Source: an uncultured delta proteobacterium (lineage in GTDB: Bacteria; Desulfobacterota; Binatia; UBA9968). Taken from it: 64,000 bases of DNA. Below are positions 8,363-63,928 of the stretch, piece by piece. The DNA is taken from the NCBI GenBank assembly GCA_963771465.1, contig CAVYTU010000013.1:160001-224000 (forward strand), written 5' to 3'. The notes beneath the pieces are model-generated. The model was not told the DNA's origin. It ran no database searches and saw only the letters and a program-made list of their open reading frames with translations. Each line of letters starts with the position of its first letter. Position 1 is the first letter of the stretch. The translations under genes were made by a program, and so were the position numbers.

Positions 8363-8377
8363 GCAAACGCTGCGCCA
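8363..8377 (-). promoter_or_regulatory. sigma54-type -24/-12 promoter for the PLD-DUF748 operon
   Basis: Minus strand TGGCGCAGCGTTTGC (GG-N10-GC). Confidence 0.7.
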
Positions 8378-8408
8378 GGTTAAACAAGATTATCTTTTCG
8401 CTGGGTTT

Positions 8409-8426
8409 TGTCTTAGATACGCGACA
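8409..8426. promoter_or_regulatory. 18-bp palindromic putative activator site (UAS)
   Basis: TGTCTTAGATACGCGACA, between two divergent sigma54 motifs. Confidence 0.55.
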
Positions 8427-8563
8427 AATTTTCTCTAGTTGTTGCGACATTGAGACGTTGCGTGGGACGCGTTTTCGTTGTGGAGGCATAAACAGCGAAA
8501 AGTGCAGCACTTACTTGCGACGCTCGTCCCATAATGCCCAGATCGACTTACTCGGGCCACAAG

Positions 8564-8578
8564 TGGCATATGACTTGC
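8564..8578 (+). promoter_or_regulatory. sigma54-type -24/-12 promoter
   Basis: TGGCATATGACTTGC, 35 nt before ATG 8613. Confidence 0.75.
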
Positions 8579-8612
8579 TGTTTAGAAGAGTTGTGAAGCA
8601 AGCGAGCACATC

Positions 8613-8885
8613 ATGGCAACAGAAGAAACAGCCGGACAGCAGATTGGAATGACAGCGATGTTGGCACTCTTGGCGTCCATCGCTGGCGTGATAGCGGTTT
8701 TTGTCGGTCAACCCGGGTGGGGATTGATGTTCGCAATATGCGCCGCGCTGCTCGGTGCCATCGGTTTTTTCATGTCGGCCTCACCGCGGGTGAGTGGCGG
8801 GATGATCAGCATCGTCGCCATCGTGATTGGAGTCTTCGGTATCGGTTTATCGGTGCTTGGCGTGATTGGCAGCGCGATTTTTTAG
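8613..8885 (+). CDS. Small membrane protein (3 TM)
   Basis: 90-aa hydrophobic ORF downstream of a sigma54 motif. Confidence 0.7.
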   Translation: MATEETAGQQIGMTAMLALLASIAGVIAVFVGQPGWGLMFAICAALLGAIGFFMSASPRVSGGMISIVAIVIGVFGIGLSVLGVIGSAIF

Positions 8886-8908
8886 AATATTCGGAAAGGA
8901 GGAGTGTT

Positions 8909-9236: not shown

Positions 9237-9932
9237 TTAGTCGCTGCTGGTACCACTCTTGCTCGAACCGCTCTTGCTGGAACCGCCCTTGCTTGAACCG
9301 CTCTCGCTTGGAACGCCCTCGCCGGGAATGCCCTCGCTCTTACTGGAATCACTCTTGGTGGAACTACTCTTGGTGGAACTACTTTTATTGGTATCGTTCG
9401 TGGTGGAACCGCTTTTGGTAGGACTGCTGGATGCGCCGGTTCCAGCCCCGTCGCGGCTAGTAGGGTCGCTTGCTGTTCCGCTGCCTGACGAACCCGCACC
9501 GGAGCTGCTACGGCTGGAACTGCCGGGAGTGGAACTGCTACCGGAGGAGAGCGTTACGCCCAATGCGCTCGCCGTGCTGCTGTCGAGCTGTCCGCTAGTC
9601 TGAATATTCTGCGCGCGTTGGAAAGCCCGCAATGCTTGCTGTGTCCGAGGGCCGATGACTCCATCGACCGGTCCAGGATTATGTCCCTTTCCTTTTAAAG
9701 CTTCCTGAACACTTCGCACATCTTCCTGCGACCATTGACCGTTCATCGAAGACCTTCCCATTGAATCGGTGCTGCTCCGCGCCGAAGAAGCATCCGATGG
9801 CCGTGGCCGTTGTTGGTTTTGTTCAGTCGACGGTCCTGAGGTTCCCGGTGAACTTTGAGACCATCCTACCACTGGGCTCAGTGTCAAAGCGCTAAAAACC
9901 ATCCCCGAAATAATCACGCTATTTTTTCTCAT
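9237..9932 (-). CDS. Secreted peptidoglycan-binding domain protein with Ser/Gly/Lys-rich tail
   Basis: Signal peptide, VRSVQEALKGKGHNPGPVDGVIGPRTQQALRAFQ (PG_binding_1); RBS aagggg before ATG 9932. Confidence 0.85.
   Translation of the reverse strand: MRKNSVIISGMVFSALTLSPVVGWSQSSPGTSGPSTEQNQQRPRPSDASSARSSTDSMGRSSMNGQWSQEDVRSVQEALKGKGHNPGPVDGVIGPRTQQALRAFQRAQNIQTSGQLDSSTASALGVTLSSGSSSTPGSSSRSSSGAGSSGSGTASDPTSRDGAGTGASSSPTKSGSTTNDTNKSSSTKSSSTKSDSSKSEGIPGEGVPSESGSSKGGSSKSGSSKSGTSSD
9256..9420. repeat. Degenerate 15-bp coding tandem repeat (5-aa units such as SSTKS/GSSKS)
   Basis: ctcttgctcgaaccg ctcttgctggaaccg cccttgcttgaaccg ... ctcttggtggaacta x2. Confidence 0.7.
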
Positions 9933-9987
9933 GCAAATTTCCCCTTTCAAATTTTGTTTATTAGGCGTTGCGCTTCTCACCAATACC

Positions 9988-10002
9988 GCAAGGAGCATGC
10001 CA
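9988..10002 (-). promoter_or_regulatory. sigma54-type -24/-12 promoter
   Basis: Minus strand TGGCATGCTCCTTGC upstream of ATG 9932. Confidence 0.75.
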
Positions 10003-10114: not shown

Positions 10115-10164
10115 CGTCTTAGTATTGCGAAGCCCCATGCGGGGTTTGTCCCAATTAAAAGACG
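10115..10164. promoter_or_regulatory. Pair of putative UAS palindromes
   Basis: CGTCTTAGTATTGCGAAG (10115) and TGTCCCAATTAAAAGACG (10147), 32 bp apart. Confidence 0.5.
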
Positions 10165-10205
10165 TTGTACCACTCGGACACGGGGTGTGCGGTGGATAGT
10201 AGTTG

Positions 10206-10220
10206 TGGCATTACGCTTGC
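10206..10220 (+). promoter_or_regulatory. sigma54-type -24/-12 promoter
   Basis: TGGCATTACGCTTGC upstream of the GT4 gene. Confidence 0.75.
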
Positions 10221-10294: not shown

Positions 10295-11371
10295 ATGAGA
10301 ATTGCTCAGGTCTCACCGCTCTACGAGAGTGTGCCGCCTAAATTTTACGGCGGTACCGAACGGGTGGTGTCCTATTTAACTGAAGAATTGATTGAGCAAG
10401 GACACGACGTGACGCTGTTTGCCAGCGGTGATTCGATTACCAAAGCGCGCTTAGTTGCGCCCTGCCCGCGGGCGCTGCGTCTCGAGCCCAACACTGAGGA
10501 GCCGTTAGCGTATCATTATATACAGCTCGATCAGGTTTTCGCTGAAGCTGAATACTTCGATATCATTCATTTCCATATCGCCTATCATCATTTTCCACTA
10601 TTTCGCTGCCAGGCGACGCCTCATCTCACCACGGTTCACGGCCGATTGGATATTGCCGATTTGGTACCGCTCTACAAAAGGTATAGAGAAGTACCTCTTA
10701 TATCGATTTCCAACGACCAGAGGCGCCCTTTGCCCTGGGCGAATTGGCAAAGCACGGTCTACCATGGCCTCCCTTTGGATCTGCATCGTTATAACCACCC
10801 GGCGAAGGGGAATTATCTGGCTTTTTTGGGGCGCATATCGCCCGAGAAGCGTTTGGACCGTGCCATCGAGATCGCCACACGCGCGGGTATGAAGCTGAAA
10901 ATAGCGGCTAAAATCGATGCTGTTGATCGCGAGTATTTTCATCAGATCATTGAACCTTTACTCGCTAACCCACTGGTGGAATGCATCGGTGAGATTGCTG
11001 ATCGGGATAAGCAAGATTTTCTTGGCAATGCCTATGCGCTGCTATTTCCGATCGATTGGCCGGAGCCGTTCGGCTTGGTCATTATCGAGGCATTGGCCTG
11101 CGGCACACCCGTCATCGGATTCCGGCGCGGGTCCGTGCCCGAGTTGATTGAAGACGGTGTCACCGGCTTTATCGTCGATGATGTCGATCAAGCCGTCGCC
11201 GCGCTGCCGAATGTTAAAAATCTGGATCGCAGGCGCTGCCGTCAAGTTTTTGAAGAGCGATTTAGCGCGGGGCGTATGACTCGCGATTATCTGCAGATTT
11301 ATTCGCGCATGATCGATGACCCGCCGCAGGTGCGAGGAGGAATCGAATCCGTCGCGATGGTGGGCGGATGA
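10295..11371 (+). CDS. Glycosyltransferase family 4 protein
   Basis: MRIAQVSPLYESVPPKFYGGTERVV, GRISPEK, EPFGLVIIEALACGTPVI. Confidence 0.92.
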   Translation: MRIAQVSPLYESVPPKFYGGTERVVSYLTEELIEQGHDVTLFASGDSITKARLVAPCPRALRLEPNTEEPLAYHYIQLDQVFAEAEYFDIIHFHIAYHHFPLFRCQATPHLTTVHGRLDIADLVPLYKRYREVPLISISNDQRRPLPWANWQSTVYHGLPLDLHRYNHPAKGNYLAFLGRISPEKRLDRAIEIATRAGMKLKIAAKIDAVDREYFHQIIEPLLANPLVECIGEIADRDKQDFLGNAYALLFPIDWPEPFGLVIIEALACGTPVIGFRRGSVPELIEDGVTGFIVDDVDQAVAALPNVKNLDRRRCRQVFEERFSAGRMTRDYLQIYSRMIDDPPQVRGGIESVAMVGG

Positions 11372-13707: not shown

Positions 13708-13722
13708 CGGTCTCAAATTTGC
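13708..13722 (+). promoter_or_regulatory. Possible sigma54-type promoter for the HAD remnant/topoisomerase IB unit
   Basis: CGGTCTCAAATTTGC, weaker -24 half. Confidence 0.45.
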
Positions 13723-13751: not shown

Positions 13752-13964
13752 ATGCGTTACTTGGCTCTAGCCTGCGATTATGATGGCACCTTGGCGTCGG
13801 CAGGCAAGGTATCGAACGAAACTTGTCTGCCTGAGCTGCCGGACTTGCTTTCGGCGTTTCCGCGCTGCGCGTTGTTTGACGCTATGGTTGAAAGTGCGGC
13901 GCGGCGATTTTGCCGCGTTGGAGCTTTGGCAGCGCGAAAGTCGCCCAGCTTATCGATTCGATAG
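13752..13964 (+). pseudogene. Truncated HAD-family (Cof-like) hydrolase remnant
   Basis: RBS gaggag; MRYLALACDYDGTLA is HAD motif I, but motif II (TGR) is missing and the ORF ends at 70 aa. Confidence 0.65.
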
Positions 13965-13968
13965 AAAG

Positions 13969-15237
13969 ATGAAAGACGACGACCACGACTCCAACCGGCA
14001 AATTTCGCGTAGCAACGGCACGGACGCCATCGCCGCAGCACAGGCGGCGCGATTGCGTTATGTTGGCGATTGGCATCCCGGGTTGCGCCGCAGGCGAAGC
14101 AGGAAGACTTTCGTTTACGTTGGCGTCAATGGTAAACCCCTGCGCGATCGCGAGCAGGTGCGCCGGATAAAAGCCCTGGCGATTCCACCGGCGTGGAGCG
14201 AAGTGTGGATATGCCCCTGGGCCGACGGTCACCTGCAGGCAACCGGCCGCGATGCGCGCGGCCGTAAACAGTATCGCTACCATTCGCACTGGCGCGAGGT
14301 GCGCGACGAGAACAAATACCAGCGTATGATCGCCTTTGGGCAGGTCTTGCCGCGCATCCGCACGCAGGTAGAGAAAGATCTGGCACTTTCGGGACTGCCG
14401 CGCCCCAAGGTGCTCGCTACAGTGGTCAAGCTCCTTGAGATGACCCATATTCGAGTCGGCAACGAAGAGTATGCGCGCAGTAACCAGTCCTTCGGTTTAG
14501 CAACCTTGCGCAACCGCCACGTTAAGATTACGGGAGGCAAATTGCGCTTTGAATTTCGCGGCAAGAGCCGGGTCGAACACGCTATCGATTTACAAGACCC
14601 GCGCCTGACGCGCATAGTCAAGCGCTGCCAAGATCTTCCCGGTTACGACTTGTTCCAATATATCGATGATGACGGTGTGCGTTGTGCCATCGAAGCAAGC
14701 GACGTGAACGATTATTTGCGCGAAATTGCCGGCGCCGAGTTTAGCACCAAAGATTTTCGCACTTGGGCTGGTACCGTGCTCGCCGCGCGAGCTCTGCGCC
14801 AGTTCAAGATTACGGGATCACAAGCCAAGACCAAACGGGATATCAACAAAGCGATCCACGCCGTAGCGCAATTGTTGGGTAACACCACGGCCGTGTGCCG
14901 CAAATGTTACATCCATCCCGCCGTACTCGATGCCTATACCTCAGGAACCTTAGGCAGTCCTGTGCTCGGCAGGCGTGCGCAGAATGGCGGAAACCGGGGC
15001 TTGGCAGCGGAGGAAAGCGCGCTCTTGGCGCTGTTGCAGCGCATGGCGCGGAGATCTGCCAGGCGAGAAAAAGTTTCACTCAAGCCGAGCCGGCGCGCCG
15101 GCGGAAAAAAATTGCGCGGCGCGCGCGTGTCTTTCACCCACGTAACGGTGACACCCGCAAAAAAGGAAAATGGGAAGAACCAGAGTTTGAGCCGTGATCG
15201 AAGGACGAAGTCGGCGCTTGCTGTCGGTTTAAAATGA
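13969..15237 (+). CDS. Bacterial DNA topoisomerase IB with basic C-terminal tail
   Basis: LAIPPAW, GRDARGRKQYRYH, RVGNEEY, FRGKS, KDFRTW, LGNTTAVCRKCYIHP catalytic motifs; start approximate. Confidence 0.92.
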   Translation: MKDDDHDSNRQISRSNGTDAIAAAQAARLRYVGDWHPGLRRRRSRKTFVYVGVNGKPLRDREQVRRIKALAIPPAWSEVWICPWADGHLQATGRDARGRKQYRYHSHWREVRDENKYQRMIAFGQVLPRIRTQVEKDLALSGLPRPKVLATVVKLLEMTHIRVGNEEYARSNQSFGLATLRNRHVKITGGKLRFEFRGKSRVEHAIDLQDPRLTRIVKRCQDLPGYDLFQYIDDDGVRCAIEASDVNDYLREIAGAEFSTKDFRTWAGTVLAARALRQFKITGSQAKTKRDINKAIHAVAQLLGNTTAVCRKCYIHPAVLDAYTSGTLGSPVLGRRAQNGGNRGLAAEESALLALLQRMARRSARREKVSLKPSRRAGGKKLRGARVSFTHVTVTPAKKENGKNQSLSRDRRTKSALAVGLK

Positions 15238-15393
15238 TTACAACGCGCTTCGCCAAAGACGCTGAAGAGCACGAAAAAAACTGTAGCGTCCAAAGCGCCG
15301 TAGAAACTAGTTAATCAGTGCTATTTTTCCTCTGTGTAGCATCATGCGCGCTATTTAACCGCGGGTGAGAATGGCCGGAACGCGCCAGCTACT

Positions 15394-15441
15394 CGTGCCA
15401 AAAACGAGACGAATTCCAAGCGAAGTCCTGGTTTTCGGACG
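15394..15441. promoter_or_regulatory. Pair of putative UAS palindromes
   Basis: CGTGCCAAAAACGAGACG (15394) and AGTCCTGGTTTTCGGACG (15424), 30 bp apart. Confidence 0.45.
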
Positions 15442-15492
15442 GCGCTCAGCCAAACCAGTGAAAATTTGTATTGAAATAGAGCAGCGAGCCTC

Positions 15493-15507
15493 TGGCACGT
15501 TAGTTGC
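15493..15507 (+). promoter_or_regulatory. sigma54-type -24/-12 promoter
   Basis: TGGCACGTTAGTTGC, perfect TGGCAC-N5-TTGC consensus. Confidence 0.85.
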
Positions 15508-15544
15508 GCTAAGTAGTTTTAGTTTTAAAATTTAAGGAGGCCTT

Positions 15545-15949
15545 GTGAAACGTATTACATTTACAATTATACCGATGTGTTTGTTAACCACACTCATTGT
15601 CGTCGGTTGTTCGAAGGATCGAGCTAGCAATGAAAAAGTATCTCAAACTAGCGCAGCACCGGACAACTCCGCTGTCAATGTCCGAGATCGCAACGATCAA
15701 ACAAAGACCGCAGGAGATCAGGCCGAAAACGAAGCCGATCGAACGATTAGTCAGAACATAAGAAAGGAGCTTAGTGCGGACGATTCACTTTCAACCAACG
15801 GTAAGAACGTTAAAATTATTACCGCGGACGGTAAGGTGACCTTACGTGGTCCGGTGAAGAGTGACGCGGAAAAATCTGCCATCGCCGGCAAAGCGCAGCA
15901 GGTAGCAGGTGTTAAAAACGTCGATAACCAATTAGAAATCGCCAATTAA
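15545..15949 (+). CDS. BON domain (OsmY-like) lipoprotein
   Basis: Lipobox IVVGC; GKVTLRGPV...AGVKNVDNQLEI; RBS aaggagg. Confidence 0.9.
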   Translation: MKRITFTIIPMCLLTTLIVVGCSKDRASNEKVSQTSAAPDNSAVNVRDRNDQTKTAGDQAENEADRTISQNIRKELSADDSLSTNGKNVKIITADGKVTLRGPVKSDAEKSAIAGKAQQVAGVKNVDNQLEIAN

Positions 15950-15972: not shown

Positions 15973-16536
15973 ATGTCCAAATCTGTATTCTGTTTAGTCG
16001 ATAGCGAAGTCCAGGCGGAAGCCATCGTCGACAATCTCAAAGCCGCCAATTTTTCCAACAACGAAATTTCGGTCTTATTTCCGGATAAATCCGGCACCAG
16101 AGACTTTGCTCACGAACAACACACTAAGGCCCCCGAGGGAGCCGCCACAGGCGCAGGAACCGGTGGGGTAGTGGGTGGAGTTTTGGGCTGGCTCGTTGGG
16201 ATCGGTTCGCTAGCGATACCGGGTGTTGGCCCTTTTATCGCTGCGGGACCGATCATGGCGGCGCTCGCCGGCGCAGGCGCTGGTGCGGCGGTCGGCGGAC
16301 TGACTGGAGCCCTGATCGGCATGGGCATTCCGGAGTACGAGGCCAAGCAGTATGAGGGAAAAATAAAGGGTGGCAATATTCTTATTTCGGTCCATTCGGA
16401 GAACAGCGATGAAAGAACGCGCGCGAAGGATATTTTCGAGCGCGCCGGGGCGCACGACATTTCCTCCACGGAAGAAGAGAGTGTTCCCGACGAAAGTAAG
16501 GTCCATCCCAGAGCGGGATATCCGTCGCGCCCATGA
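15973..16536 (+). CDS. General stress protein (YflT/17M-like fold with glycine-zipper membrane segment)
   Basis: PEGAATGAGTGG...AIPGVGPFIAAGP...GMGIPEYEAKQYE; RBS aggagg. Confidence 0.8.
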   Translation: MSKSVFCLVDSEVQAEAIVDNLKAANFSNNEISVLFPDKSGTRDFAHEQHTKAPEGAATGAGTGGVVGGVLGWLVGIGSLAIPGVGPFIAAGPIMAALAGAGAGAAVGGLTGALIGMGIPEYEAKQYEGKIKGGNILISVHSENSDERTRAKDIFERAGAHDISSTEEESVPDESKVHPRAGYPSRP

Positions 16537-16861: not shown

Positions 16862-18679
16862 ATGAGCACTTCCCGAGCCGACCCAACGTCGAGCTACGGA
16901 TGGAGCGGCAAGTTGCCCTCCCTATCGGTCCTCCCCGCGTTGGTTCTCGTTGTCGCGTCTCTTTATTGGGCGCAGTTATTTCTCATTCCCATTGCGCTCG
17001 CGGTTTTGCTCACATTTTTATTGACTCCTGTAGTGACGGCGCTGGAAACCCTAGGCTTGCGTCGTGTTCCTTCTGTCCTACTCATTGTCATCATTCTCTT
17101 TTCACTGTTGGGAATTATCGGCTGGATTGTCGCGCTTCAACTTAACAGCGTCGCCAATCAGCTGCCCACGTACAGAAATAATATTCGGCAAAAGATCGCG
17201 GATGTGCGCGGCGCTGGCAAGGGTAGCGCCTGGGAGAAGATGAAAGAGACCGCGAAGGAAGTAAAAAAAGAACTCAGCAAAGATCCCAGTTCGGCGCCCC
17301 AGCCGCGTCCAGTGGTTGTTCAAGGTGAAGAGTCGACGACGTTCTGGCCCATTTCACCGTCCGCGGCTTCGATGTTCGATCGTCTGGCGGGAGCTGGGTT
17401 CGTGATCGTTTTGGTGGTTTTTATGCTCATCCGCCGGGAAAATTTGCGTAACCGGCTGATTCGGCTGCTAGGTTATGGACGCTTGACGATTACTACCAAA
17501 GCGATGGAAGAGGCCGGCCGCGGCATAACTCGCTATCTAGTTATGCAGTCGCTGCTCAATAGTGGGTTTGGCATGGCGGTGGCAGCTGCGCTTCTATTGA
17601 TTGGGCTCCCTTATGCGCTTCTCTGGGGTTTTTTGGCTGCTTTGTTGCGCTTCATTCCTTACGTCGGCTCAATGGTAGCGGCGACTCTGCCGACAGTCTT
17701 AAGTCTCGCGGTGTTCGATGGCTGGTTCTGGCCAATGCTCGTTTTTGGCGTGATTGTCGCTATGGAACTCGTGAACGGCATGATTTTGGAACCTTTACTT
17801 TATGGTGAAAGCGCGGGTGTCTCTGAAGTCGGCCTGCTCGTCGCGATTGCGTTTTGGACCTGGCTTTGGGGCCCGCTCGGACTTTTACTCGCGACTCCCC
17901 TTACAGTTTGTGTTGTTGTGATCAGCAAACACGTGCCGCAGATGGAATTTATCGATGTGCTCATGAGCGACGATCGCATCGTCGATATCGATACCGACAT
18001 TATCTATTATCAACGGTTGTTAGCGATGGATCGGGTCGAAGCGAGGGAAATCATCGAAGACCATTTCAAGTCGCATCCCGCCGAACAGGTTTTCGACGAA
18101 CTCATGGTTCCAGCCCTCAGTTATGCCAAAAGAGATTTTTCACGTGGCCGATTAACCGAAGCCGAAGAACAGTTGGTTTTCCAATCGACACGCGAGATTC
18201 TGGCGGAGGTTGAAAGTTTGCAGCCGAAGGATTCCTCAGATTCGTCCAGCCCGACGATCGACGCTCAGCGCCAGCCTTCGATTTCCGGGAAACTTTGCAT
18301 TATCGGTTGTCCAGCCAAGGACGAGGGTGACGAGTTGGCTCTGGCCATGTTTAGTCGGTTGCTCGATCCGAACCGTTATGAGATCGAAATACTCGCCGAT
18401 GAGTTGCTGATCTCCGAGATCATCGAACGGATTGCTGAAAAAAACCCTGCGATAGTCTGTATAGCGTCAGTACCCCCGGATGGATTGGATCATACTCGAT
18501 CCCTTTGCAAACGGCTGAGACAGCGATTCCCTGACCTGCAAATCTTCGTTGGTCGATGGGGTATCGACGGTCGGGACAATACCGATCAGTTAATGTTGGC
18601 TGGCGCTGACAAGATCGGCAAAACGATAATAGAATCGCAACAGCAAGTCATGCAGGTGAATCAACTGACTGCCAATTGA
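16862..18679 (+). CDS. AI-2E family transporter with C-terminal B12-binding-like domain
   Basis: LIPIALAVLLTFLLTPVV, ILEPLLYGES, FWTWLWGPLGLLLATPLTVC; full-length paralog of 1..1629. Confidence 0.88.
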   Translation: MSTSRADPTSSYGWSGKLPSLSVLPALVLVVASLYWAQLFLIPIALAVLLTFLLTPVVTALETLGLRRVPSVLLIVIILFSLLGIIGWIVALQLNSVANQLPTYRNNIRQKIADVRGAGKGSAWEKMKETAKEVKKELSKDPSSAPQPRPVVVQGEESTTFWPISPSAASMFDRLAGAGFVIVLVVFMLIRRENLRNRLIRLLGYGRLTITTKAMEEAGRGITRYLVMQSLLNSGFGMAVAAALLLIGLPYALLWGFLAALLRFIPYVGSMVAATLPTVLSLAVFDGWFWPMLVFGVIVAMELVNGMILEPLLYGESAGVSEVGLLVAIAFWTWLWGPLGLLLATPLTVCVVVISKHVPQMEFIDVLMSDDRIVDIDTDIIYYQRLLAMDRVEAREIIEDHFKSHPAEQVFDELMVPALSYAKRDFSRGRLTEAEEQLVFQSTREILAEVESLQPKDSSDSSSPTIDAQRQPSISGKLCIIGCPAKDEGDELALAMFSRLLDPNRYEIEILADELLISEIIERIAEKNPAIVCIASVPPDGLDHTRSLCKRLRQRFPDLQIFVGRWGIDGRDNTDQLMLAGADKIGKTIIESQQQVMQVNQLTAN

Positions 18680-18812: not shown

Positions 18813-18827
18813 TGGTACGATGGTTGC
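18813..18827 (+). promoter_or_regulatory. sigma54-type -24/-12 promoter
   Basis: TGGTACGATGGTTGC. Confidence 0.75.
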
Positions 18828-18926
18828 GTAATTTTTAACCAAGGCCGCAAATAAAACCAAAGGGCAAATTAATTGAGATTTCTTGGTCACTAGGGTGGCT
18901 AATAAAAATTTGCGAGGAGGTACAGC

Positions 18927-19262
18927 ATGCAGAAAAAAGAATCTATTAAATCGGCAGACGAAACTCGGGTCACGGGTTTGTTCGACGACTCCGAGCAAGC
19001 CAAAGAGGCGGTCGAAGAATTAAAAGACGCTGGCTTTGGCGGAGATCGGATTGCTATCGCCATGCAGGATAGCGCGGCCCAGGACAGCTTTGTCGCCGAA
19101 ACCAAGGTGCATACAGCGGCCGCGGAGGAAATTCCCAGCATTCCGGAACTAGACGCCGGGCAGGTGCTTCTTTTGGTCGAAGCTGCGGATCAGGCCGCGC
19201 TAGCGTTAGAAATTATCAATCGCAATCAAGGCATCACCGGTGGCGTGCGCATGCCGACGTAG
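18927..19262 (+). CDS. Stand-alone general stress (YflT-like) domain protein
   Basis: VTGLFDDSEQAKEAVEELKDAGF; RBS gaggagg; closely similar to the C-terminal domain of 21803..22615. Confidence 0.75.
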   Translation: MQKKESIKSADETRVTGLFDDSEQAKEAVEELKDAGFGGDRIAIAMQDSAAQDSFVAETKVHTAAAEEIPSIPELDAGQVLLLVEAADQAALALEIINRNQGITGGVRMPT

Positions 19263-19444: not shown

Positions 19445-20383
19445 TCATGACGTTGGTCGCACGAGGCGGTTGTTGCCTCGCACACGCTTGCCCCGTTGTA
19501 TTTCAGGCGCTGCCGGCTGTGCCTTGTGCGACGGCGTAAACCCCGAGCCTAATCTGGTGGCATAGACCTGGGTCATCTCGGCACCAAAGAAAAAAATTAG
19601 CGATGAGTAATAAATCCATAAAAGCAAGGTGACAAGCGATCCCGCGGCGCCGTATACAGACGTCACCGAGCTTTGCCCGAGATAAAGACCGATAAAGAAC
19701 TTTCCGACGTTAAACAAGAGAGCGGTGAGTATCCCGCCGACCGCTACGTCCTTCCAAACGATGCGCCCGTCCGGCATGAATCTATAAATAGCGGCGAATA
19801 TAAATGCGATCAGGCCAAATGAGACGAAAAAATGTATAGCCTGGAGCAGGACGCCGGTGTCTGGCATCGTGCTTCGGAGAAACTGATCGAATGCAGAAAG
19901 AGCCGCGCTGACGGCTAGAGACACCAGCAACAGAAAGCCAACACCGAGCACCATTGCGTAAGAGATGAAGCGTTCTTTGACGAAACCGACCACGCCTTGC
20001 TCGGGTTTTGGTTCGATTCCCCAGATCATGTTTAGTGAGCTTTGTAGCTGGCCGACCACACCGCCGGCGCCAAATAACAGCAGCGCTACGCCAACTAGCA
20101 TCGTCGCGATACTATCCCCAGTTTGCTGCTTGCCGGCGTTTTCGATCATTGTTTGGATGACCAAGCCGGTGTCCTTACCGACAAAACCCGACAGCGTCTG
20201 AACTAACTGATCTTGCGCTGCCTCGCGGCCGAAAAATAAACCCGCCAGAGACACAGCAATTACTAGCAGGGGAGCAAGTGAGAAGAGCGTGTAATAAGCC
20301 AAAGCGGCAGCCAATTCGAACGGCCGGTCTTCATTCCACCACTGGTTAAACGCTTCCTTTAGTACGGTCCAAAACGATCGCAT
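19445..20383 (-). CDS. YihY/BrkB family membrane protein
   Basis: AAALAYYTLFSLAPLL, YGAAGSLVTLLLWIYYSSLIFFFGAE; start placed downstream of the promoter motif. Confidence 0.9.
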   Translation of the reverse strand: MRSFWTVLKEAFNQWWNEDRPFELAAALAYYTLFSLAPLLVIAVSLAGLFFGREAAQDQLVQTLSGFVGKDTGLVIQTMIENAGKQQTGDSIATMLVGVALLLFGAGGVVGQLQSSLNMIWGIEPKPEQGVVGFVKERFISYAMVLGVGFLLLVSLAVSAALSAFDQFLRSTMPDTGVLLQAIHFFVSFGLIAFIFAAIYRFMPDGRIVWKDVAVGGILTALLFNVGKFFIGLYLGQSSVTSVYGAAGSLVTLLLWIYYSSLIFFFGAEMTQVYATRLGSGFTPSHKAQPAAPEIQRGKRVRGNNRLVRPTS

Positions 20384-20412: not shown

Positions 20413-20427
20413 GCAAGCGGAATGCCA
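20413..20427 (-). promoter_or_regulatory. sigma54-type -24/-12 promoter
   Basis: Minus strand TGGCATTCCGCTTGC. Confidence 0.7.
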
Positions 20428-20604
20428 CCCAACACGGCGCATGGCGGGCAGTGCGTGCGATACGGAAGGACCAAATTAAACCTGCTGAGTCTCACGATTC
20501 ACACACTAGAGGGAACGAAAGTATCAGAAGTAGGATTTGATTCGAGAGTCGAGCGGAAAAAGATTTTTGCCTGGCGTACCAGGAGTCTCAGGATTCGGCA
20601 ACTT

Positions 20605-20619
20605 TGGTGTGGCTCTTGC
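20605..20619 (+). promoter_or_regulatory. sigma54-type -24/-12 promoter
   Basis: TGGTGTGGCTCTTGC upstream of RBS aaggag and ATG 20666. Confidence 0.6.
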
Positions 20620-20665: not shown

Positions 20666-20983
20666 ATGCCGAACGCGACACAATTACTACGTCAGGATCA
20701 TAAGAAGGTGAAGGCTTTGTTCGCCAAATTCGAGCAGGGCAAGGCTGCCGATGCAAAAAGGCGCTTTGCTATGCAGTCAATGAATGAGCTGGAAGTTCAC
20801 GCCCGGGTAGAAGAAGAGATTTTCTATCCCGCCGATCACTAAGTACGGCGAGATCCTGAGGAACGAAACGCAAAGTCTGGAACCCGATCGAAGACCAAAA
20901 GCAACGCTAAATCGACTCCTCAGAGGAAATCACGGTCGAGGACCGCGCGCAGCTCTGGCCGCAAACGAGCACGGGCAAGCTAA
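20666..20983 (+). pseudogene. Hemerythrin/HHE-domain gene with internal deletion and premature stop
   Basis: MPNATQLLRQDHKKVKALF...ELEVHARVEEEIFYPA then TAA at 20840-20842; the same frame resumes as a basic tail ending KRARAS; parallels 27457..27906. Confidence 0.75.
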
Positions 20984-21119
20984 CCGATAAGCGCGCTGCC
21001 GAGCAACCGCACTCGCACGCTGATCTATATTCGGGACGTTCTCAAAGCTAATTACTTAAAACTGGAACGGATGATGATAGCCGTCACATTGGTTGCAGGG
21101 GAAACCGTCTGTGCCTGCG

Positions 21120-21134
21120 CGGCATGTTAGTTGC
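21120..21134 (+). promoter_or_regulatory. sigma54-type -24/-12 promoter
   Basis: CGGCATGTTAGTTGC, nearly identical to the 15493 motif. Confidence 0.7.
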
Positions 21135-21802: not shown

Positions 21803-22615
21803 ATGCAGCTTAAAGAATTTATTAATTCTCGCGTCGAAACAGTCCAACCCGGTGACACATTACAACAAGCCGCGGAAAAAATGAAAGAATTGGATGTCGG
21901 ATCGCTGCCGGTGTGCGCCGGCGGGCAGCTGGTCGGCATGATCACAGACCGTGACATCACGATTCGCGCAGTTGCCAGAGGAAGCGAGCCGGCAACGGCG
22001 ACGGTGAGTGAAGTGATGACGCCCGACGCCCTGTGGTGTTTTGAGGATGAGACAGTCGAAGAAGCCGCCCGAACTATGCAAGAGCATCAAGTGCGGCGAA
22101 TTCTTGTGCTTAACGAAGCCAAGGAGCTCGTCGGTATCACCTCGTTGGGAGAACTGGTTACGGTCACGGGCGATCGCCGGTTGGCCGGTGAGACGCTCGA
22201 AGCCATTTCTGAAGCCAGACAAGCGGAAGACAAACTTGATGACGATGAGCTTGACGTCGAGGAGCCTGGCGATGACTCAAATAGCGAAGAAGGCGGCGCC
22301 GGGTCAAATGAAACGCGAGTGACAGGGCTTCTCCACGACCGCGAAGCCGCCAAAAGAGCGGTCGAGGAATTAAAGGATGCAGGCTTCACAGACAGCTCAA
22401 TTCTGGTTGCCATGCAGGATGAAACCGAGCAGGAGAGTTTTGCCGAGGAGACTCATGCGCAAGCCATCGGGGCCGGGGAAATTCCCAGCTTGCCTGATTT
22501 GAGCCCGGGCCAAGTCCTAGTCATGGTCGAAGCCGAAAGCCGCGCAGCGGATGCTTTGAATATACTCAATCGGAATCATGCGGTCACTGGCGGCGTGCGC
22601 ACTCCTGCTGCTTGA
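21803..22615 (+). CDS. CBS-pair protein fused through an acidic linker to a YflT-like domain
   Basis: LDVGSLPVC...GMITDRDI...QVRRILV CBS pair; D/E-rich linker; C-terminal copy of the 18927 domain. Confidence 0.85.
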   Translation: MQLKEFINSRVETVQPGDTLQQAAEKMKELDVGSLPVCAGGQLVGMITDRDITIRAVARGSEPATATVSEVMTPDALWCFEDETVEEAARTMQEHQVRRILVLNEAKELVGITSLGELVTVTGDRRLAGETLEAISEARQAEDKLDDDELDVEEPGDDSNSEEGGAGSNETRVTGLLHDREAAKRAVEELKDAGFTDSSILVAMQDETEQESFAEETHAQAIGAGEIPSLPDLSPGQVLVMVEAESRAADALNILNRNHAVTGGVRTPAA

Positions 22616-22631
22616 TTTGAATCGGGAGCCT

Positions 22632-23000
22632 ATGCAGCCGAACTCCGGCACTCTTAAAAGCATCCTTTCGGCTCAGGGAGCCTATTATTTAGTTACGGGG
22701 GTATGGCCGCTGGTGGCCATGCGCAGTTTTGAGCGTGTCACCGGGCCGAAGACCGATAAATGGCTGGTCAAAACCGTCGGTGTTTTGGTCGCAGCCATCG
22801 GCGGCTCATTGATGGTTGCGGGCCGCCGAAATCCGGTCAGTCGGGAAGCGCGGCTGCTCGCTGCGGCAAGCGCCGGCGGGCTTGCGCTGATCGATATCAC
22901 CTACGTCGCTAAGCGTCGCATCGCGCCGATCTACTTGCTCGATGCATTGGCAGAAGTAGCGTTGCTGGCGATGGGGAAATACGTGCACGCGAGAGACTGA
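22632..23000 (+). CDS. Hypothetical membrane protein
   Basis: RBS ggag; QGAYYLVTGVWPLV...FERVTGPKTDKWLVKTVG; hydrophobic segments. Confidence 0.7.
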   Translation: MQPNSGTLKSILSAQGAYYLVTGVWPLVAMRSFERVTGPKTDKWLVKTVGVLVAAIGGSLMVAGRRNPVSREARLLAAASAGGLALIDITYVAKRRIAPIYLLDALAEVALLAMGKYVHARD

Positions 23001-23102
23001 GGCTCAGCGCTCTACACCTGTCAACCGGGAGGTTGCGCTGAACGATTACCGAAAAAGGGAATTTAGTTCGAGAACAAATTTTTATTTTAAAGGAGACGAC
23101 AA

Positions 23103-23696: not shown

Positions 23697-24033
23697 CGTG
23701 GATTAATTACTTTCTACAACAAGTGAGACCGGTTGATCACAGCTAGAGAGCGGTTTTGGGCCGCCCCCTTCCTGGAGGGCGGCTGCTTGCGTGCGCGCGC
23801 CGCTTGCTGGCGCTGATCAATATAATTACTCAATAATCGCGCCGGTCAATTTATTATGAACGAGTGGTATCGGCGATACCCTTCAGAAAAATGAAGCGCG
23901 ACGAAAGGGTGCGGGCGCAATAAAAGCGGCAGGGGCGCATCTACGGGCGACAATAAGCTCCATGAACTTTAAGCCGCATCAGAGCCCGCCGTTAAGGCAA
24001 GTAACAGTAAATGCTGATTAGGAAGGACTACTA

Positions 24034-46697: not shown

Positions 46698-46787
46698 AGC
46701 TTATTATTTTATGGTTTTTATTACCTGCCGTAGGCAGGATTGTGGTCGCGCGAGGATTCAAGCTGGCGCGAGAAGGGTTGGTGCAAT

Positions 46788-49401: not shown

Positions 49402-49416
49402 GCAAACCGAATGCCA
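49402..49416 (-). promoter_or_regulatory. sigma54-type -24/-12 promoter for the CBS/DUF6496 unit
   Basis: Minus strand TGGCATTCGGTTTGC. Confidence 0.65.
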
Positions 49417-49751
49417 TGGTTCCGAGAGTAGAAGAGAATAAAAACTCATCATGTGCGTAGCGATCATCGCGTACGCGCAAGCCTGCAAGTATTAAGCACA
49501 TGCCGATGCGTGGAAATTTTCACGCGGTTCATTCACGTCTAGTGTAAGCGCCAAAATGATTTGACGGCCGTCCGATCTTCGCTTTCCTGTTCGCTCTGCT
49601 GTCCCCAAACTGGGTCGCCGAGGCCGAGCAAACTCTCAATTATAGTAATGGTGTTTCGACTAGATCTTCTTATCGCCTTCAGCGGCCAGACAACGGTGGT
49701 TTATCGATGCGAGGATCTTTTTGATTCGTCTAAATCGGGTGCGCAATCGCC

Positions 49752-49932: not shown

Positions 49933-56274
<6,342 letters not shown>

Positions 56275-60411: not shown

Positions 60412-60495
60412 GCTTCAGAGACAGCGCAGTGGCACGTTTTTAATCACCCGTGATTTAGCGACAGTGAGATCCTTGCCCGTTATTATCCAGTCTAA

Positions 60496-61911
60496 ATGGC
60501 AAATCGATACGATGCCGTCGTAATCGGTTCCGGCCCCAACGGTTTAGCGGCGGCGATTACCTTGGCCCAGGCGGGCCGATCGGTAATCGTCTATGAAGCA
60601 GAAGCGATTCCCGGCGGCGGGGCGCGCTCGTTTGCGCTGACCTTGCCGGGTTACGTTCACGATGTCTGCTCGGCAGTCTATCCACTGGCCATCGGTTCGC
60701 CGTTTTTTCGCACCTTACCTCTCGATCAGCACGGGCTTGATTGGATCCATCCGCCGTCGCCGCTGGCGCATCCACTCGACGATGGCACAGCGGTGATCGT
60801 CGAGCGCTCGGTCGACGCCACTGCGGCCAGCCTCAATGACGACGCTAATTCCTATCGCCGCTTGATGAATTATTTCTGCGCCCGGTGGGACGGATTGGAC
60901 ATCGACCTGTTGGGGCCACCGCGAATGCCACGCCACCCGTTGGTGTTGGCGCGCTTCGGCTTTCTTGGCATTCGCCCGGCAGCGAACTTTGCCCGCAGCT
61001 ATTTCAAAGGTGCTCGAGCACGCGCGTTATTTGCCGGATTGGCGGCCCATTCCATGTTGCCGCTCGAAGCGTTGGGCTCGGCGGCATTCGGACTGGTCTT
61101 GGGCATCACCGCTCACAGCGTCGGCTGGCCGGTGGCACGCGGCGGCGCGCAAAGGTTGGCCGATGCGCTGGTTTCCTACGCGCGCTCGCTGGGCGTGGAG
61201 ATTGTCACCGAGCGGCGTGTTCGCGCGCTTCGCCAACTGCCAAAAGCGCGCGCCGTGTTATGCGATGTGACGCCGCGCCAGCTTTTAGCGCTGGCGGAAA
61301 ATGAATTGCCGGATTCGTTCCAGCGGCGCTTGCAAAGCTATCGCTACGGCATGGGCGTTTACAAAGTCGATTGGGCGCTCTCGGCGCCGGTGCCCTGGCG
61401 AGCAGCCGAGTGCGCCCGCGCCGCCACGGTTCACCTCGGCGGTTCGCTGGAAGAAATTGCGCTGTCGGAACGCGCTGCGGCGCGCGGCGAACAGAATGAC
61501 CGGCCCTTCGTCCTGATCGCGCAGCCCTCACTTTTCGATGAATCGCGCGCGCCCCAAGGCAAACACACGCTCTGGGGTTACTGTCATGTGCCCCATGGTT
61601 CGGACCGACCGATGCTGGATAACATTGAAAGTCAGATCGAGCGGTTTGCGCCGGGGTTTCGCGAGATCGTGCTGGCGCGGCATACAATGGGGCCGGCGCT
61701 GCTCGAACAGCGCAATGCCAATCTAGTGGGCGGGGACATCAACGGCGGTACTGCCGATCTGCGGCAATTATTTTTGCGGCCGTCCCGGCGCATGTACGGT
61801 ACTCCGGTAAAAGGTCTTTATCTATGCTCGGCGTCGACGCCGCCCGGCGGCGGCGTGCACGGCATGTGCGGCTATTTTGCCGCGCGCCGGGCCCTCAGCG
61901 AGATGGAATAA
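60496..61911 (+). CDS. Phytoene desaturase-like FAD-dependent oxidoreductase
   Basis: IGSGPNGLAAA, HDVCSAV, CSASTPPGGGVHGMCG. Confidence 0.88.
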   Translation: MANRYDAVVIGSGPNGLAAAITLAQAGRSVIVYEAEAIPGGGARSFALTLPGYVHDVCSAVYPLAIGSPFFRTLPLDQHGLDWIHPPSPLAHPLDDGTAVIVERSVDATAASLNDDANSYRRLMNYFCARWDGLDIDLLGPPRMPRHPLVLARFGFLGIRPAANFARSYFKGARARALFAGLAAHSMLPLEALGSAAFGLVLGITAHSVGWPVARGGAQRLADALVSYARSLGVEIVTERRVRALRQLPKARAVLCDVTPRQLLALAENELPDSFQRRLQSYRYGMGVYKVDWALSAPVPWRAAECARAATVHLGGSLEEIALSERAAARGEQNDRPFVLIAQPSLFDESRAPQGKHTLWGYCHVPHGSDRPMLDNIESQIERFAPGFREIVLARHTMGPALLEQRNANLVGGDINGGTADLRQLFLRPSRRMYGTPVKGLYLCSASTPPGGGVHGMCGYFAARRALSEME

Positions 61912-62143
61912 AGCGTCGGACCCGTCGCAACGATAACAATTAACCTTCCTTTCGTCGCCGCTTATCTTTTTAATCCCGCGGCTTTAGACTGGACGCGAGC
62001 CATCGTCTAGAGGAACCGGTAGCCAAAAAGTGCTTAAGGCCCGTGTGTCCGCGTTGGCGGCTCGACCTGCATCCATTGGGTAAATCTTTACGTCTGGATT
62101 AAGTTTTGCAGAGCCAGAGGTGTTGTGGGACTAACATTCGCTC

Positions 62144-62407
62144 ATGTTTCGAAAGAAATTTTCCGTTTCAGCGTGCGAGGTAGGTGCAATGGTTAGACTG
62201 AAGAAATCATCCGATCAAAGAGCCAAACAAACTCAGACGGCCGACCCTGTGCTCATCGAGCTCAGCGCTGAAGCCAAAACCAATCTGAAAAAGCTCCAGT
62301 TACTCTCTTTGGATGGCGAGGGGCGGCAACCGGGCGCCTCACAGATTATCGAAAAACTGATCAACGCCGCGGTGGTTAGCGGCCCGGATGCGCCTTATCC
62401 GGGATGA
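62144..62407 (+). CDS. Hypothetical protein (start may be 62189)
   Basis: 87-aa ORF ending 3 nt before the next gene; RBS-like gaggtagg before ATG 62189. Confidence 0.45.
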   Translation: MFRKKFSVSACEVGAMVRLKKSSDQRAKQTQTADPVLIELSAEAKTNLKKLQLLSLDGEGRQPGASQIIEKLINAAVVSGPDAPYPG

Positions 62408-62410
62408 TCT

Positions 62411-63679
62411 GTGCATCGGGTCGTGGTGATCGGTGGCGGGTTTGGCGGACTTTGCGCGGTCCAGTCGATGCGCCATTTACCCGTCGAGGTCACGCTCGTA
62501 GACCGGCGCAATTTCCATCTTTTTCAGCCACTGCTTTACCAAGTTGCTACCGGTTGGTTATCGCCGGCCAACATCGCTTCGACCCTTAGAGCCGTATTAC
62601 GTCACCAAAAGAACGCCAAAGTTCTTCTTACAGAAGTAACCGACATTGACCCGGCGCGTCGCAAAGTAGTTTTCGCCGGCGGAACACTTGACTATGACAC
62701 GCTGATCGTCGGCACCGGCTCGAGTCACCATTATTTCGGACATGACCATTGGCAGAAACTTGCACCGGGCTTAAAGACCATCGAAGACGCCATCGAAATG
62801 CGCCGCCGGATCTTTTCCGCCTTCGAGTCCGCTGAGCGAGAGACCGATCCGGCCAAGATTCGCGACTGGTTGACCTTCGTGATTGTCGGCGGCGGTCCTA
62901 CCGGCGTGGAACTCGCCGGTGCGTTAGCGGATATTGCCAATCAAACTTTGACTCACGACTTTCGCAGCATCGATCCTAGCGCGACGCGAATACTTTTGCT
63001 TGAGGCGTCTGATCGTATCCTATCGACTTATCCTGAGGATCTGGCGAGCAACGCGCAAGGCTTTCTAAAGAACCTTGGTGTGTCAGTGCAAACTCGCACT
63101 GCGGTCACCGAACTCCGGCCGGGTGAGGTTGCGGTCAAGCGTTGTGAGACGCCTGAGGTGATTCCCTGTCAGACGGTGCTCTGGGCGGCGGGGGTGCGCG
63201 CATCGCAACTTGGCGAAGTGCTGGCGCGCTGCGGCGTTGCGACTTTGGATCGCGGCCGCAGGGTGATCGTTGAGGACGATTTTTCTCTTGCCAATCATCC
63301 GGAGATTTTTGTCATCGGCGATCTGGCTTGCTATACGCCGTCCGGCGGCAATCCGTTGCCGGGTATCGCGCCGGTCGCGCAACAAGCCGGTCGCTACGTC
63401 GCCCAAATTATCGGCAACCGTCTCAATGGCAAAACTACGCGGCCATTCAAATATCGGGATCGCGGCAGTATGGCAATTGTCGGTCGCGCCATTGCCGTCG
63501 CGGACTTGGGAGGCATGCATCTCGCCGGTTTCGCCGCTTGGCTCGCGTGGTTGTTTATTCATCTGATGCAGATCGTTGAGTTCGAAAACCGTGTGCTGGT
63601 ACTGGTTCAATGGGGCTGGTTCTATTTTCGCCGCAGCCGTGCTGCGCGGTTAATTACGGGTGACAAGTTTGAGTCGTGA
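62411..63679 (+). CDS. ndh: Type II NADH dehydrogenase family FAD oxidoreductase
   Basis: IGGGFGG, FQPLLYQVATG, VGGGPTGVELAG, WAAGV, IGD, FKYRDRGSMA. Confidence 0.88.
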   Translation: MHRVVVIGGGFGGLCAVQSMRHLPVEVTLVDRRNFHLFQPLLYQVATGWLSPANIASTLRAVLRHQKNAKVLLTEVTDIDPARRKVVFAGGTLDYDTLIVGTGSSHHYFGHDHWQKLAPGLKTIEDAIEMRRRIFSAFESAERETDPAKIRDWLTFVIVGGGPTGVELAGALADIANQTLTHDFRSIDPSATRILLLEASDRILSTYPEDLASNAQGFLKNLGVSVQTRTAVTELRPGEVAVKRCETPEVIPCQTVLWAAGVRASQLGEVLARCGVATLDRGRRVIVEDDFSLANHPEIFVIGDLACYTPSGGNPLPGIAPVAQQAGRYVAQIIGNRLNGKTTRPFKYRDRGSMAIVGRAIAVADLGGMHLAGFAAWLAWLFIHLMQIVEFENRVLVLVQWGWFYFRRSRAARLITGDKFES

Positions 63680-63791
63680 AACTGCGCGGGCGAAAATTAA
63701 AAACCCAATTGGCTCGCTCCGTAGAATTACCGTGAGGCTGCGTGATTCGTCGCGCGCGAGATCCTGACAAAATGCGCTAACGCAATGACAA

Positions 63792-63928
63792 TGTCTCATT
63801 TTTGAAACACCGTAAAGCTTTTCGTATCATTCTTGGGATTACGCGCCCCAGCGAAATTTTACAAAGCGGTTGAATTTCGTTCGTTGCCGTTGGTTCACGC
63901 GACGACTCGCCACTGGCATGTCGGTTGC
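63792..63928 (+). promoter_or_regulatory. UAS pair (63792, 63823) plus sigma54-type promoter (63914-63928) for a gene beyond the window
   Basis: TGTCTCATTTTTGAAACA, CGTATCATTCTTGGGATT (31 bp apart), TGGCATGTCGGTTGC. Confidence 0.7.

Follow-up and report, generated by a model that had tools for sequence, protein, structure and literature searches.

Predicted sigma-54 promoters with a shared enhancer dyad in a stress-gene island of an uncultured Binatia bacterium

We analysed a 64,000-nucleotide stretch of DNA (the window; C13:160001-224000, where C13 is contig CAVYTU010000013.1 and bare numbers are window positions) from an uncultured delta proteobacterium of the class Binatia, in which genes of general-stress families lie behind putative -24/-12 promoters of the kind read by sigma-54 (RpoN). 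The source genome (G000, assembly GCA_963771465.1) comprises 6.9 Mb with 56% G+C on 19 contigs, among them C13, C15, and C17, and is rated 99% complete with 6% contamination; crude calls of open reading frames (ORFs) cover 86-91% of each contig (about 88% of the genome). Parts of the window are present in soil, rhizosphere, and groundwater runs of 15 studies, and for the YihY protein the closest named public relatives share 74-87% identity and belong to metagenome-assembled genomes from soil, which carry the labels Candidatus Binatia, 'delta proteobacterium' or Thermodesulfobacteriota. A preliminary description of the window had read 17 GG-N10-GC motifs as sigma-54 promoters and had proposed that this lineage may run its general stress response through sigma-54 and an enhancer-binding activator.

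Pfam searches bore out the target families named in that description, namely KatE, BON, DUF892 (YciE-like), YflT, CBS, and BrkB/YihY, and also found a glycogen-debranching/MGH-like gene, three YflT-like genes, CBS pairs, DUF1003, DUF6766, and two YihY/BrkB genes within the window. To the left of it lie Dps/ferritin, YtxH, DUF948, and single-domain receiver genes, and to the right sugar nucleotidyltransferase, CBM48, HAD, and metallophosphoesterase genes (all by Pfam). KatE, Dps, OsmY-like BON proteins, YciE/YciF-like DUF892 proteins, YflT, YtxH, and enzymes of sugar or solute metabolism make up a gene set of the type found in RpoS, SigB, and EcfG regulons. The window would form the core of an island of about 100 kb (C13, about 148-241 kb), most of whose operons appear to serve stress protection (KatE, Dps, BON/OsmY-like, YflT-like, YtxH, DUF892/YciE-like, hemerythrin, CBS-pair, and YihY/BrkB proteins), with storage-sugar or compatible-solute enzymes probably encoded there as well.

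All 17 motifs lie at the coordinates and on the strands originally given, and each points at a downstream start codon, mostly 20-110 nt away (about 180-200 nt for 49402 and 63914). The bare GG-N10-GC pattern is uninformative, with 828 occurrences in the window versus 819±24 in shuffled sequence, which is chance level. The pattern TGGC-N7-TTGC occurs 15 times versus 4.13±1.88 in shuffled sequence, a count of 15 being reached in none of 100 shuffles; ten of these coincide with the 17 motifs, and the remaining five (4891, 17634, 31488, 35809, and 57270) are in line with chance expectation. Exact TGGCAC-N5-TTGC is present twice, as had been reported, at 15493 and 37415 (shuffle mean 0.16; two copies reached in one of 100 shuffles). 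With a sigma-54 matrix trained once, on 61 strict TGGCAY-N5-TTGC sites upstream of ORFs outside C13:140-245 kb, 12 of the 17 sites scored at least 12.8 bits. The window holds 12 matches of at least 13 bits and eight of at least 17 bits versus genome means of 3.0 and 1.0 per 64 kb, counts reached by 20 and 18 of 723 sliding windows, respectively, and the 12 top-ranked sliding windows are confined to C13 (starts at 112-152 kb) and C15 (starts at 472-528 kb). All but one of the 12 matches of at least 13 bits are intergenic and correctly oriented, the exception being 50030(-). By shuffles and by matrix alike, the window far exceeds the genome background in motif density. A matrix iterated with the threshold unchanged was dropped after its matches had drifted from 516 to 1246.

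TGGCAY-N5-TTGC behaves as a promoter motif across this genome: among 119 strict sites, 72 lie upstream of an ORF and face it, 31 lie deep in coding sequence, and 16 lie elsewhere, and 14 of the 72 correctly placed sites lie no more than 5 kb from a sigma-54-activator locus (26 such loci were considered) versus 2.7 expected by area. The factor itself is encoded by one full-length rpoN gene with AID, CBD, and DBD domains (Pfam), located between an lptB-like ABC ATPase gene and a PtsN-type EIIA gene, and the sigma-54 interaction domain PF00158 has 35 matches in the genome, about 23 of them in full-length proteins. In related genomes (congeneric genomes here, labelled G003, G004, and so on), the motifs are kept upstream of orthologues while spacers and flanks vary and the -24 and -12 blocks stay constant. 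It could still be argued that the motifs are chance matches, sites of some other protein or a repeat element rather than promoters, given the chance-level count of bare GG-N10-GC and two sites of the original 17 that found no support. We regard this as highly improbable and close to refuted by the enrichment over shuffles and over the genome, the strand and position bias, the proximity to activator genes, the conservation of -24/-12 blocks with free spacers in up to nine other genomes, and the presence of both rpoN and an activator with a GAFTGA motif.

Alignments with relatives also revealed that the conserved parts of the upstream regions are blocks of a dyad, GTCCY-N6-RGGAC. K-mer counting and a Gibbs sampler, applied to 30 upstream regions of the C13 island, both gave tGTCCCAAnnnnGCGA, mostly 60-100 nt from the -24 element, and GTCCCAA occurs in 11 of the 30 regions versus 33 of 1500 controls. 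With a dyad matrix built from eight dyads of four other genomes only (G004, G003, G011, and G018) and searched up to 230 nt upstream, dyads of at least 10 bits were found at 10 of the 17 window sites versus 12 of 1995 random upstream regions, and dyads of at least 14 bits at eight of the 17 versus two of 1995; a single dyad type covers at least eight separate upstream regions in the window. Genome-wide, the dyad accompanies 36 of 584 sigma-54-like sites, with 18 in C13:152-236 kb, two in a hot spot on C15, and 16 elsewhere. A strict GTCYY-N6-RRGAC pattern was too rare for target counting (39 in the genome, 11 of them near a loose sigma-54 site versus 3-4 of 48-110 for control patterns). The Gibbs sampler gave, in addition, an A/T-rich motif of GAAAAAT/AAATTT type between dyad and -24 element (for example at 15470-15490 and 20530-20560), which may be a site for integration host factor or mark an intrinsic bend, features known from many sigma-54 promoters. 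A separate observation concerns the sigma-54 site TGGTACGGTGATTGC, found in three copies at C13:442804(-), C15:705478(+), and C17:65919(+), each with a near-identical dyad about 90 nt upstream; these could be a repeated small gene or mobile unit with its own enhancer-promoter cassette.

Five kilobases left of the window, C13:153626-154981 encodes an NtrC-type response regulator with the Pfam domains Response_reg (residues 5-115), Sigma54_activat (144-310), AAA_lid_14, and HTH_8 (407-446), a GAFTGA motif at residue 219, and Walker A and B motifs. Its own upstream region carries a sigma-54 site and two tandem GTCCY-N6-RGGAC dyads, and the same layout is found in G000, G004, G003, G011, and G018, where the protein is 91-93% identical in G004/G003 and 64-65% identical in G011/G018.

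Support for each of the 17 sites was drawn from three independent lines, namely the matrix, the enhancer dyad, and conservation in relatives. Twelve of the claimed promoters have at least two of these (8363, 8564, 9988, 10206, 15493, 18813, 20413, 21120, 27953, 37415, 49402, and 63914), three have one (28496 from the matrix, 46683 from conservation, and 31009 from the dyad), and two, 13708 and 20605, have none.

The four leftmost predicted promoters form two divergent pairs, each with a dyad in common. The site at 8363-8377(-), a TGGCGC-N5-TTTGC variant of 13.8 bits for a PLD-like gene (7535-8347(-); Pfam PLDc), recurs as the same variant before the orthologues in G004 and G003, and the site at 8564-8578(+) (19.7 bits), for a 90-aa gene at 8613-8885 with no Pfam family, is kept in both genomes with an altered spacer; the dyad common to these two, at 8408-8427 (GTCTT-N6-GCGAC core, 16.7 bits), is a block likewise kept in G004 and G003. 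The second pair comprises a site at 9988-10002(-) (21.9 bits; identical in G004 and G003) for a PG_binding_1 protein (9237-9998(-)) and one at 10206-10220(+) (21.2 bits; kept in G004) for a GT4 glycosyltransferase (10295-11371). Their common dyad, at 10146-10165 with the core GTCCCAATTAAAAGAC (17.4 bits), is a conserved block in a three-genome alignment and was recovered de novo by Gibbs sampling, with a second conserved block, GTCTT..GCGAA, beside it.

The first exact TGGCAC-N5-TTGC site, at 15493-15507(+) (20.8 bits), is predicted to serve a BON gene (15545-15949) paired with a YflT-like gene (15973-16536); it has a dyad of 14.4 bits at 15393-15412 and a conserved GTCCT-N6-CGGAC block closer to the promoter, and a site in matching position was found at seven of eight BON loci in seven congeneric genomes. 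At 18813-18827(+), a TGGTAC variant (12.8 bits, with a weak dyad of 7.9 bits) precedes a YflT-like gene (18927-19262), and TGGTAC-N5-TTGC also stands at the syntenic CBS-YflT gene of G004 and G003. The putative promoter at 20413-20427(-) (18.9 bits), for a YihY/BrkB gene (19445-20380(-)), has an exact-type counterpart in three of six close relatives plus one degenerate site, and in G004 and G003 the YihY gene is joined to the operon after CBS-YflT. A CGGCAT variant at 21120-21134(+) (14.2 bits; dyad of 13.5 bits at 21020-21039) heads a same-strand row of DUF1003, CBS-YflT, a 140-aa ORF, DUF892, KatE (24034-26499), and DUF6766 (Pfam), while a TGGTCC variant at 27953-27967(-), for a hemerythrin gene (27457-27906(-)), has TGGYCY-N5-TTTGC at equal offset in G004, G003, and G012 and a conserved TCCT-N6-AGGA dyad of 9.0 bits at 28006-28025.

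Further right, the second exact TGGCAC-N5-TTGC site, at 37415-37429(+) (20.1 bits; dyad of 16.3 bits at 37305-37324), appears to serve a 119-aa ORF, an SDR+DUF2171 gene (37897-39243), and a zinc alcohol dehydrogenase gene (39295-40869; families by Pfam) and is kept in G179, G003, and G004. The site at 49402-49416(-) (14.5 bits), for a CBS-pair protein (48780-49217(-)) followed by DUF6496 (48201-48701), has an upstream counterpart at all 10 testable CBS loci (one more is truncated where its contig ends, and an unpublished genome is excluded) and a GACCC-N6-GGGAC dyad at 49599-49618 that is kept in the three closest relatives. The rightmost site, at 63914-63928(+) (23.0 bits), faces a 120-aa ORF that starts 108 nt past the window end and is followed by an AI-2E-family permease gene; its dyad (15.5 bits at 63791-63810) and the site itself are kept in G003, G174, G179, and G004. 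The 120-aa ORF (L048:109-471, equal to C13:224109-224471) has no Pfam family, and short ORFs that match its N-terminal ~50 residues occur in 27 of 30 congeners (including one unpublished genome), frequently as two or three copies.

Next come the three sites with a single line of support. The one at 28496-28510(+) (17.1 bits) is a probable sigma-54 promoter and is followed by two ORFs with no Pfam family (28578-29051 and 29063-29740) and then the second YihY/BrkB gene (29816-30805); the gene directly after it has no orthologue in 30 congeners. The conserved TGGTCY-N5-ATTGC element at 46683-46697(+), upstream of a 158-aa ORF (46740-47216), scores below 9 bits and has no dyad; with TGGTCTGGAGATTGC standing before all three orthologues found (G179, G003, and G004), it is likely a variant sigma-54 promoter. 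The GGGTAT site at 31009-31023(+), before a 67-aa ORF and then a CBS gene (31298-31762), is ambiguous: it scores below 9 bits, is preceded at a distance of 58 nt by a dyad of 16.0 bits (30931-30950), and has no corresponding site before three close orthologues. The site at 13708-13722(+), upstream of a topoisomerase IB gene (13780-15237), is probably not a sigma-54 promoter, with a score below 9 bits, a best dyad of -0.2 bits, and no counterpart in G004, G003, or G018. A TGGTGT site at 20605-20619(+), upstream of a 58-aa hemerythrin-like ORF (20666-20842), is unsupported as well (below 9 bits, no dyad), and in relatives this ORF directly follows YihY.

The genome has a second concentration of such promoters. 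On C15, at ~470-590 kb (L049 and L050), lie genes for AAA-BON, glycine-zipper, MlaC, SRPBCC, CBS-pair, YflT-like, and peptidoglycan-binding proteins, and the promoters of this island share a GGAAWTTCCTCC-like motif unlike the GTCCY dyad, only two C15 sites having a dyad of the C13 type. The C15 island would use sigma-54 with another enhancer motif, and therefore probably a different activator; no enhancer could be assigned to the activator gene that lies within this island, and the GGAAWTTCCTCC-like motif could be tied to no activator. A paralogue of the island activator, 60% identical to it, is encoded at C13:418909-420252. Its surroundings (C13:413-428 kb) include a sigma-54 site at 421879 and another at 415167, the latter accompanied by a strong dyad-like site, together with a hemerythrin gene and four CBS-domain ORFs that stand alone, and may constitute a third, smaller module.

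Beyond the genus, we followed the 187-aa YflT-like protein (15973-16536), which is unusually conserved (about 85% identity within the genus, 64-76% across several other families of the class) and whose gene usually stands directly after an ORF of BON size. At the YflT loci of other families, a same-strand sigma-54-like site lies up to 700 nt upstream in 12 of 29 cases versus one of 29 on the opposite strand; eight of these sites are at -440 to -532, before the preceding BON-size ORF, mostly in family f12 and most with a TCGC -12 element. Families f4, f5, f10, and f13 have one such site (at -651, off the cluster) in 12 loci. At four f12 loci (L118, L119, L122, and L142) the BON-YflT pairs are preceded by TGGCACRCATCTCGC, and a conserved CTTTGTAGG block lies ~90-110 nt upstream in L118, L119, and L122 with a partial match in L142, suggesting a sigma-54-type promoter with, likely, another enhancer. 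The f12 BON-YflT promoter has no GTCCY dyad. Because sigma-54-like sites recur in other families without this dyad, control of the BON-YflT operon by sigma-54 is, on comparison of these loci, older than the genus, with a different enhancer.

Sequence and comparison show the promoters, how enriched and conserved they are, the dyad common to many of them, and that the genome encodes rpoN and an activator, and together these findings lead us to consider it likely that the window belongs to a sigma-54 stress-gene island with a shared enhancer, whose main activator is most likely the NtrC-type regulator at C13:153626-154981. Sigma-54 promoters are silent until an enhancer-bound AAA+ activator opens them. 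The island operons would be transcribed from the -24/-12 promoters by RNA polymerase with sigma-54, once the activator had bound the 16-bp GTCCY-N6-RGGAC dyads about 30-180 nt upstream of the -24 element. The activator would also drive its own gene, and the switch would therefore be self-reinforcing. The switch would be set when a sensor kinase phosphorylates the receiver domain, and a candidate sensor, proposed by inference only, is the hybrid histidine kinase of the window at 2750-4774(+) (PAS-PAS-HisKA-HATPase-REC by Pfam). Two genes precede it in the same row, an AI-2E/B12-binding fusion (1-1629) and then a MetE-like gene (1689-2750), and the row begins at a divergent region whose dyads lie at C13:159.6-159.8 kb. 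Which protein binds the dyad, what signal is sensed, and that the system acts as the cell's general stress response are points that we infer.

Several observations, concerning the sensor, the enhancer, the wiring of stress genes including KatE, the RNA record, and a second sigma factor, weigh against this reading. No kinase ORF flanks C13:153626-154981, the nearest candidate (2750-4774) being ~8 kb off. Seven of the 17 sites have no dyad of at least 10 bits, the strong promoters 20413 and 28496 among them, and therefore more than one activator acts on the window promoters. The de novo enhancer matrix performed only moderately outside its training region, with 20 of 339 matches near a sigma-54 site versus 2-9 of 181-474 for column-shuffled versions, about a 2.5-fold enrichment; the matrix from other genomes is the cleaner test. 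Stress-family copies outside the islands mostly lack sigma-54 sites, so the wiring is specific to the islands and not to the families. Counted before every genomic copy, a site was found for two of four YflT, three of 13 BON, two of four hemerythrin, four of nine small CBS, and two of 10 large CBS genes versus a background of 139 of 1500, a count blurred by operon position and by a search window too short (at least one BON promoter was missed).

KatE itself lies 2.9 kb downstream of 21120, its nearest sigma-54 site, and no sigma-54 site was found in the 338-nt gap before it or in 22401-24036. We nevertheless place KatE provisionally under sigma-54 control because in G004 and G003 the DUF892-KatE genes are directly preceded (-370 and -251) by CGGCACG(T/C)TAGTTGC with upstream dyads. 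Four RNA-library runs from three studies of soil and rhizosphere contain contigs over several island genes, covering BON-YflT, the YflT gene at 18905-19160, hemerythrin, the 90-aa ORF, the PG-binding gene, and CBS-YflT; these runs are assembled contigs, from which starts, strands, and levels cannot be read and whose uncovered parts mean nothing. Two contigs, both from a single study, span BON and YflT (15546/15548 to 16692/16700, with 0-1 mismatches), and another, X6 (15433-15859), runs across the BON promoter.

The dyad-less sites raise the question of whether these are real sigma-54 promoters that form only a patchwork of independent activator modules with no single general response, each module answering its own signal, such as oxygen or peroxide, osmotic stress or desiccation, light via B12-binding domains, or envelope damage. 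The seven unaccompanied window sites, the different GGAAWTTCCTCC-like motif on C15, the ~23 activators of the genome, and the 60%-identical paralogue with further sigma-54 sites and CBS and hemerythrin genes nearby are all in keeping with such an arrangement, but a single dyad type occurs in at least eight window upstream regions and at 18 C13-island sites, the activator's own gene included, and this therefore argues for one large regulon instead of many small ones; we judge the patchwork, and the separate signals it implies, to be unlikely. For the idea of a large protective gene set under one regulator, the gene content fits and one dyad covers much of the C13 island, but that coverage does not extend to seven of the 17 sites or to the C15 island. 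Of the original proposal, then, the placement of stress genes behind sigma-54 promoters with a shared dyad has held up, whereas at least two activator modules appear to be involved and a cell-wide general role goes beyond what the promoters themselves establish.

A different possibility is that the stress genes are governed mainly by a factor of the sigma-70 family, either a second RpoD-like sigma or one of the extracytoplasmic-function (ECF) type, with the sigma-54 promoters as a secondary input. Sixteen sigma-70-family genes were found, and the ten scanned (the longer genes and some of ECF size; the six left out are all of ECF size, 172-191 aa) comprise RpoD, a second RpoD-like sigma, RpoH, FliA, and ECF types. 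No SigB/F/G or RpoS model passed its cut-off among these ten, and the PhyR model matched receiver domains only (best 94.6 bits versus a cut-off of 240), so that none of the RpoS, SigB or PhyR models is represented above threshold. The second RpoD-like sigma (508 aa; C17:914918-916447(-), L054) scores 416 bits against an RpoD cut-off of 555 and 261 bits against an RpoS cut-off of 378.7, and could be a stationary-phase sigma. This protein, with RpoS among its nearest models, the ~11 ECF-type sigmas, and the frequency of dual promoters in known stress genes speak for sigma-70 control; the idea is weakened by the short intergenic regions, in which the conserved -24/-12 element and the dyad predominate, and by the footprints, in which no other block is as conserved as these, although no dedicated -35/-10 or ECF motif search was made. 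We consider it decidedly unlikely, and a sigma-54 island under a shared enhancer remains our preferred explanation.

Some further features of the window stand apart from this argument. Homologues of KaiC (41288-43249) and KaiB (43598-43939) lie mid-island (41288-43939(+), Pfam), and the pair has no sigma-54 site of its own of at least 9 bits. Two AI-2E-family permeases are fused to B12-binding domains (1-1629 and 16862-18679), an arrangement suggestive of transport linked to the sensing of cobalamin or light; a third AI-2E permease of the island (L048:567-1724) is unfused. A 2113-aa ORF at 49933-56274 has many internal repeats, visible as a ladder of ~90-aa antisense ORFs, and is unrelated to the stress genes.

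Three designs of general stress response are established, built on sigma-S, sigma-B, and EcfG/PhyR, all of which use sigma-70-family factors with leaky promoters and competition for core polymerase. In gene content the present island resembles the regulons of RpoS in E. coli, SigB in Bacillus subtilis, and EcfG/PhyR in Alphaproteobacteria (membership as generally known); unlike them, it would depend on the unrelated sigma-54 family and require an ATP-hydrolysing activator and an upstream enhancer. Specialised stress modules under sigma-54 are also familiar, among them PspF/psp, RtcR, NorR, ZraR, and the Borrelia Rrp2-RpoN-RpoS cascade. As here, sigma-54 with a dedicated activator answers stress in these modules, but they control one or a few operons or switch on another sigma factor, whereas in this island sigma-54 promoters stand directly before many effector genes, an unusual wiring for a stress response. 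Phage-shock and metal-stress enhancer-binding proteins (EBPs) are mentioned in PMC4641369, and Rrp2 in PMC3162934.

As precedents, the Myxococcus Nla28 starvation regulon (with the related Nla EBP cascade) and these small sigma-54 stress modules come closest. According to PMC9765219, Nla28 of Myxococcus xanthus is a self-regulated activator of a starvation and resistance programme with 12 confirmed and 58 putative sigma-54 promoters, recognised through tandem 8-bp direct repeats, and its target promoters are mostly intragenic. Both systems pair an NtrC-like activator acting on its own promoter, here by prediction, with dozens of sigma-54 promoters, and both hosts are activator-rich soil bacteria of the former 'Deltaproteobacteria'. 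In contrast to Nla28, the element here is a 16-bp inverted dyad, the promoters are intergenic, the targets are canonical general-stress families gathered in islands, and no multicellular development is implied; the likeness of the two activators is one of description and not of established orthology. For Desulfovibrio vulgaris, PMC4641369 places DVU3305, a response-regulator EBP with two operons, under 'general stress response'. It shares with our system a two-component sigma-54 activator, a deltaproteobacterial lineage, and the link to general stress drawn by its authors, but has two operons as compared with one dyad type at ~18 sites in one island and 36 genome-wide. The portion of the survey by Francke et al. 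available to us names only sigma-S and SigB as stress sigmas, treats the general stress response as the domain of SigB, and leaves catalase and Dps unmentioned. A literature search with partial coverage returned no sigma-54 control of a KatE/Dps/BON/YflT-type regulon, which does not establish absence from print. As to the earlier remark that such an architecture is not known to be described at this scale, sigma-54 starvation regulons of similar size are described for Myxococcus in PMC9765219; within the reach of that search none with a KatE/Dps/BON/YflT content was found.

At its broadest, and only tentatively, the island may represent a case in which sigma-54 takes over the role of RpoS, SigB or EcfG-PhyR: a phosphorelay would lead to a self-amplifying NtrC-type activator, and this, through one 16-bp dyad, to at least 30 promoters before classic general-stress genes, and a second activator would govern a sister island. 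Such a system would count as a fourth design of general stress or dormancy response, distinct in mechanism and all-or-none because sigma-54 promoters are silent without their activator, and in part (the BON-YflT operon) it would go back to other families of the class. If such a regulon exists, each promoter would be off until the ATP-driven activator acts, and so tight an off-state would fit a dormancy-like switch in a soil organism that faces drying and rewetting. The system is well defined: it has a promoter motif and a 16-bp enhancer, its activator gene is named and predicted to regulate itself, candidate target sites number ~36, it is conserved in a genus from which at least 30 genomes have been sampled, and its BON-YflT promoter occurs in other families of the class. 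It is therefore testable in a surrogate host, although the organism is uncultured, and with its help metatranscriptomes may come to show in what regulatory state an abundant but uncultured group of soil bacteria finds itself.

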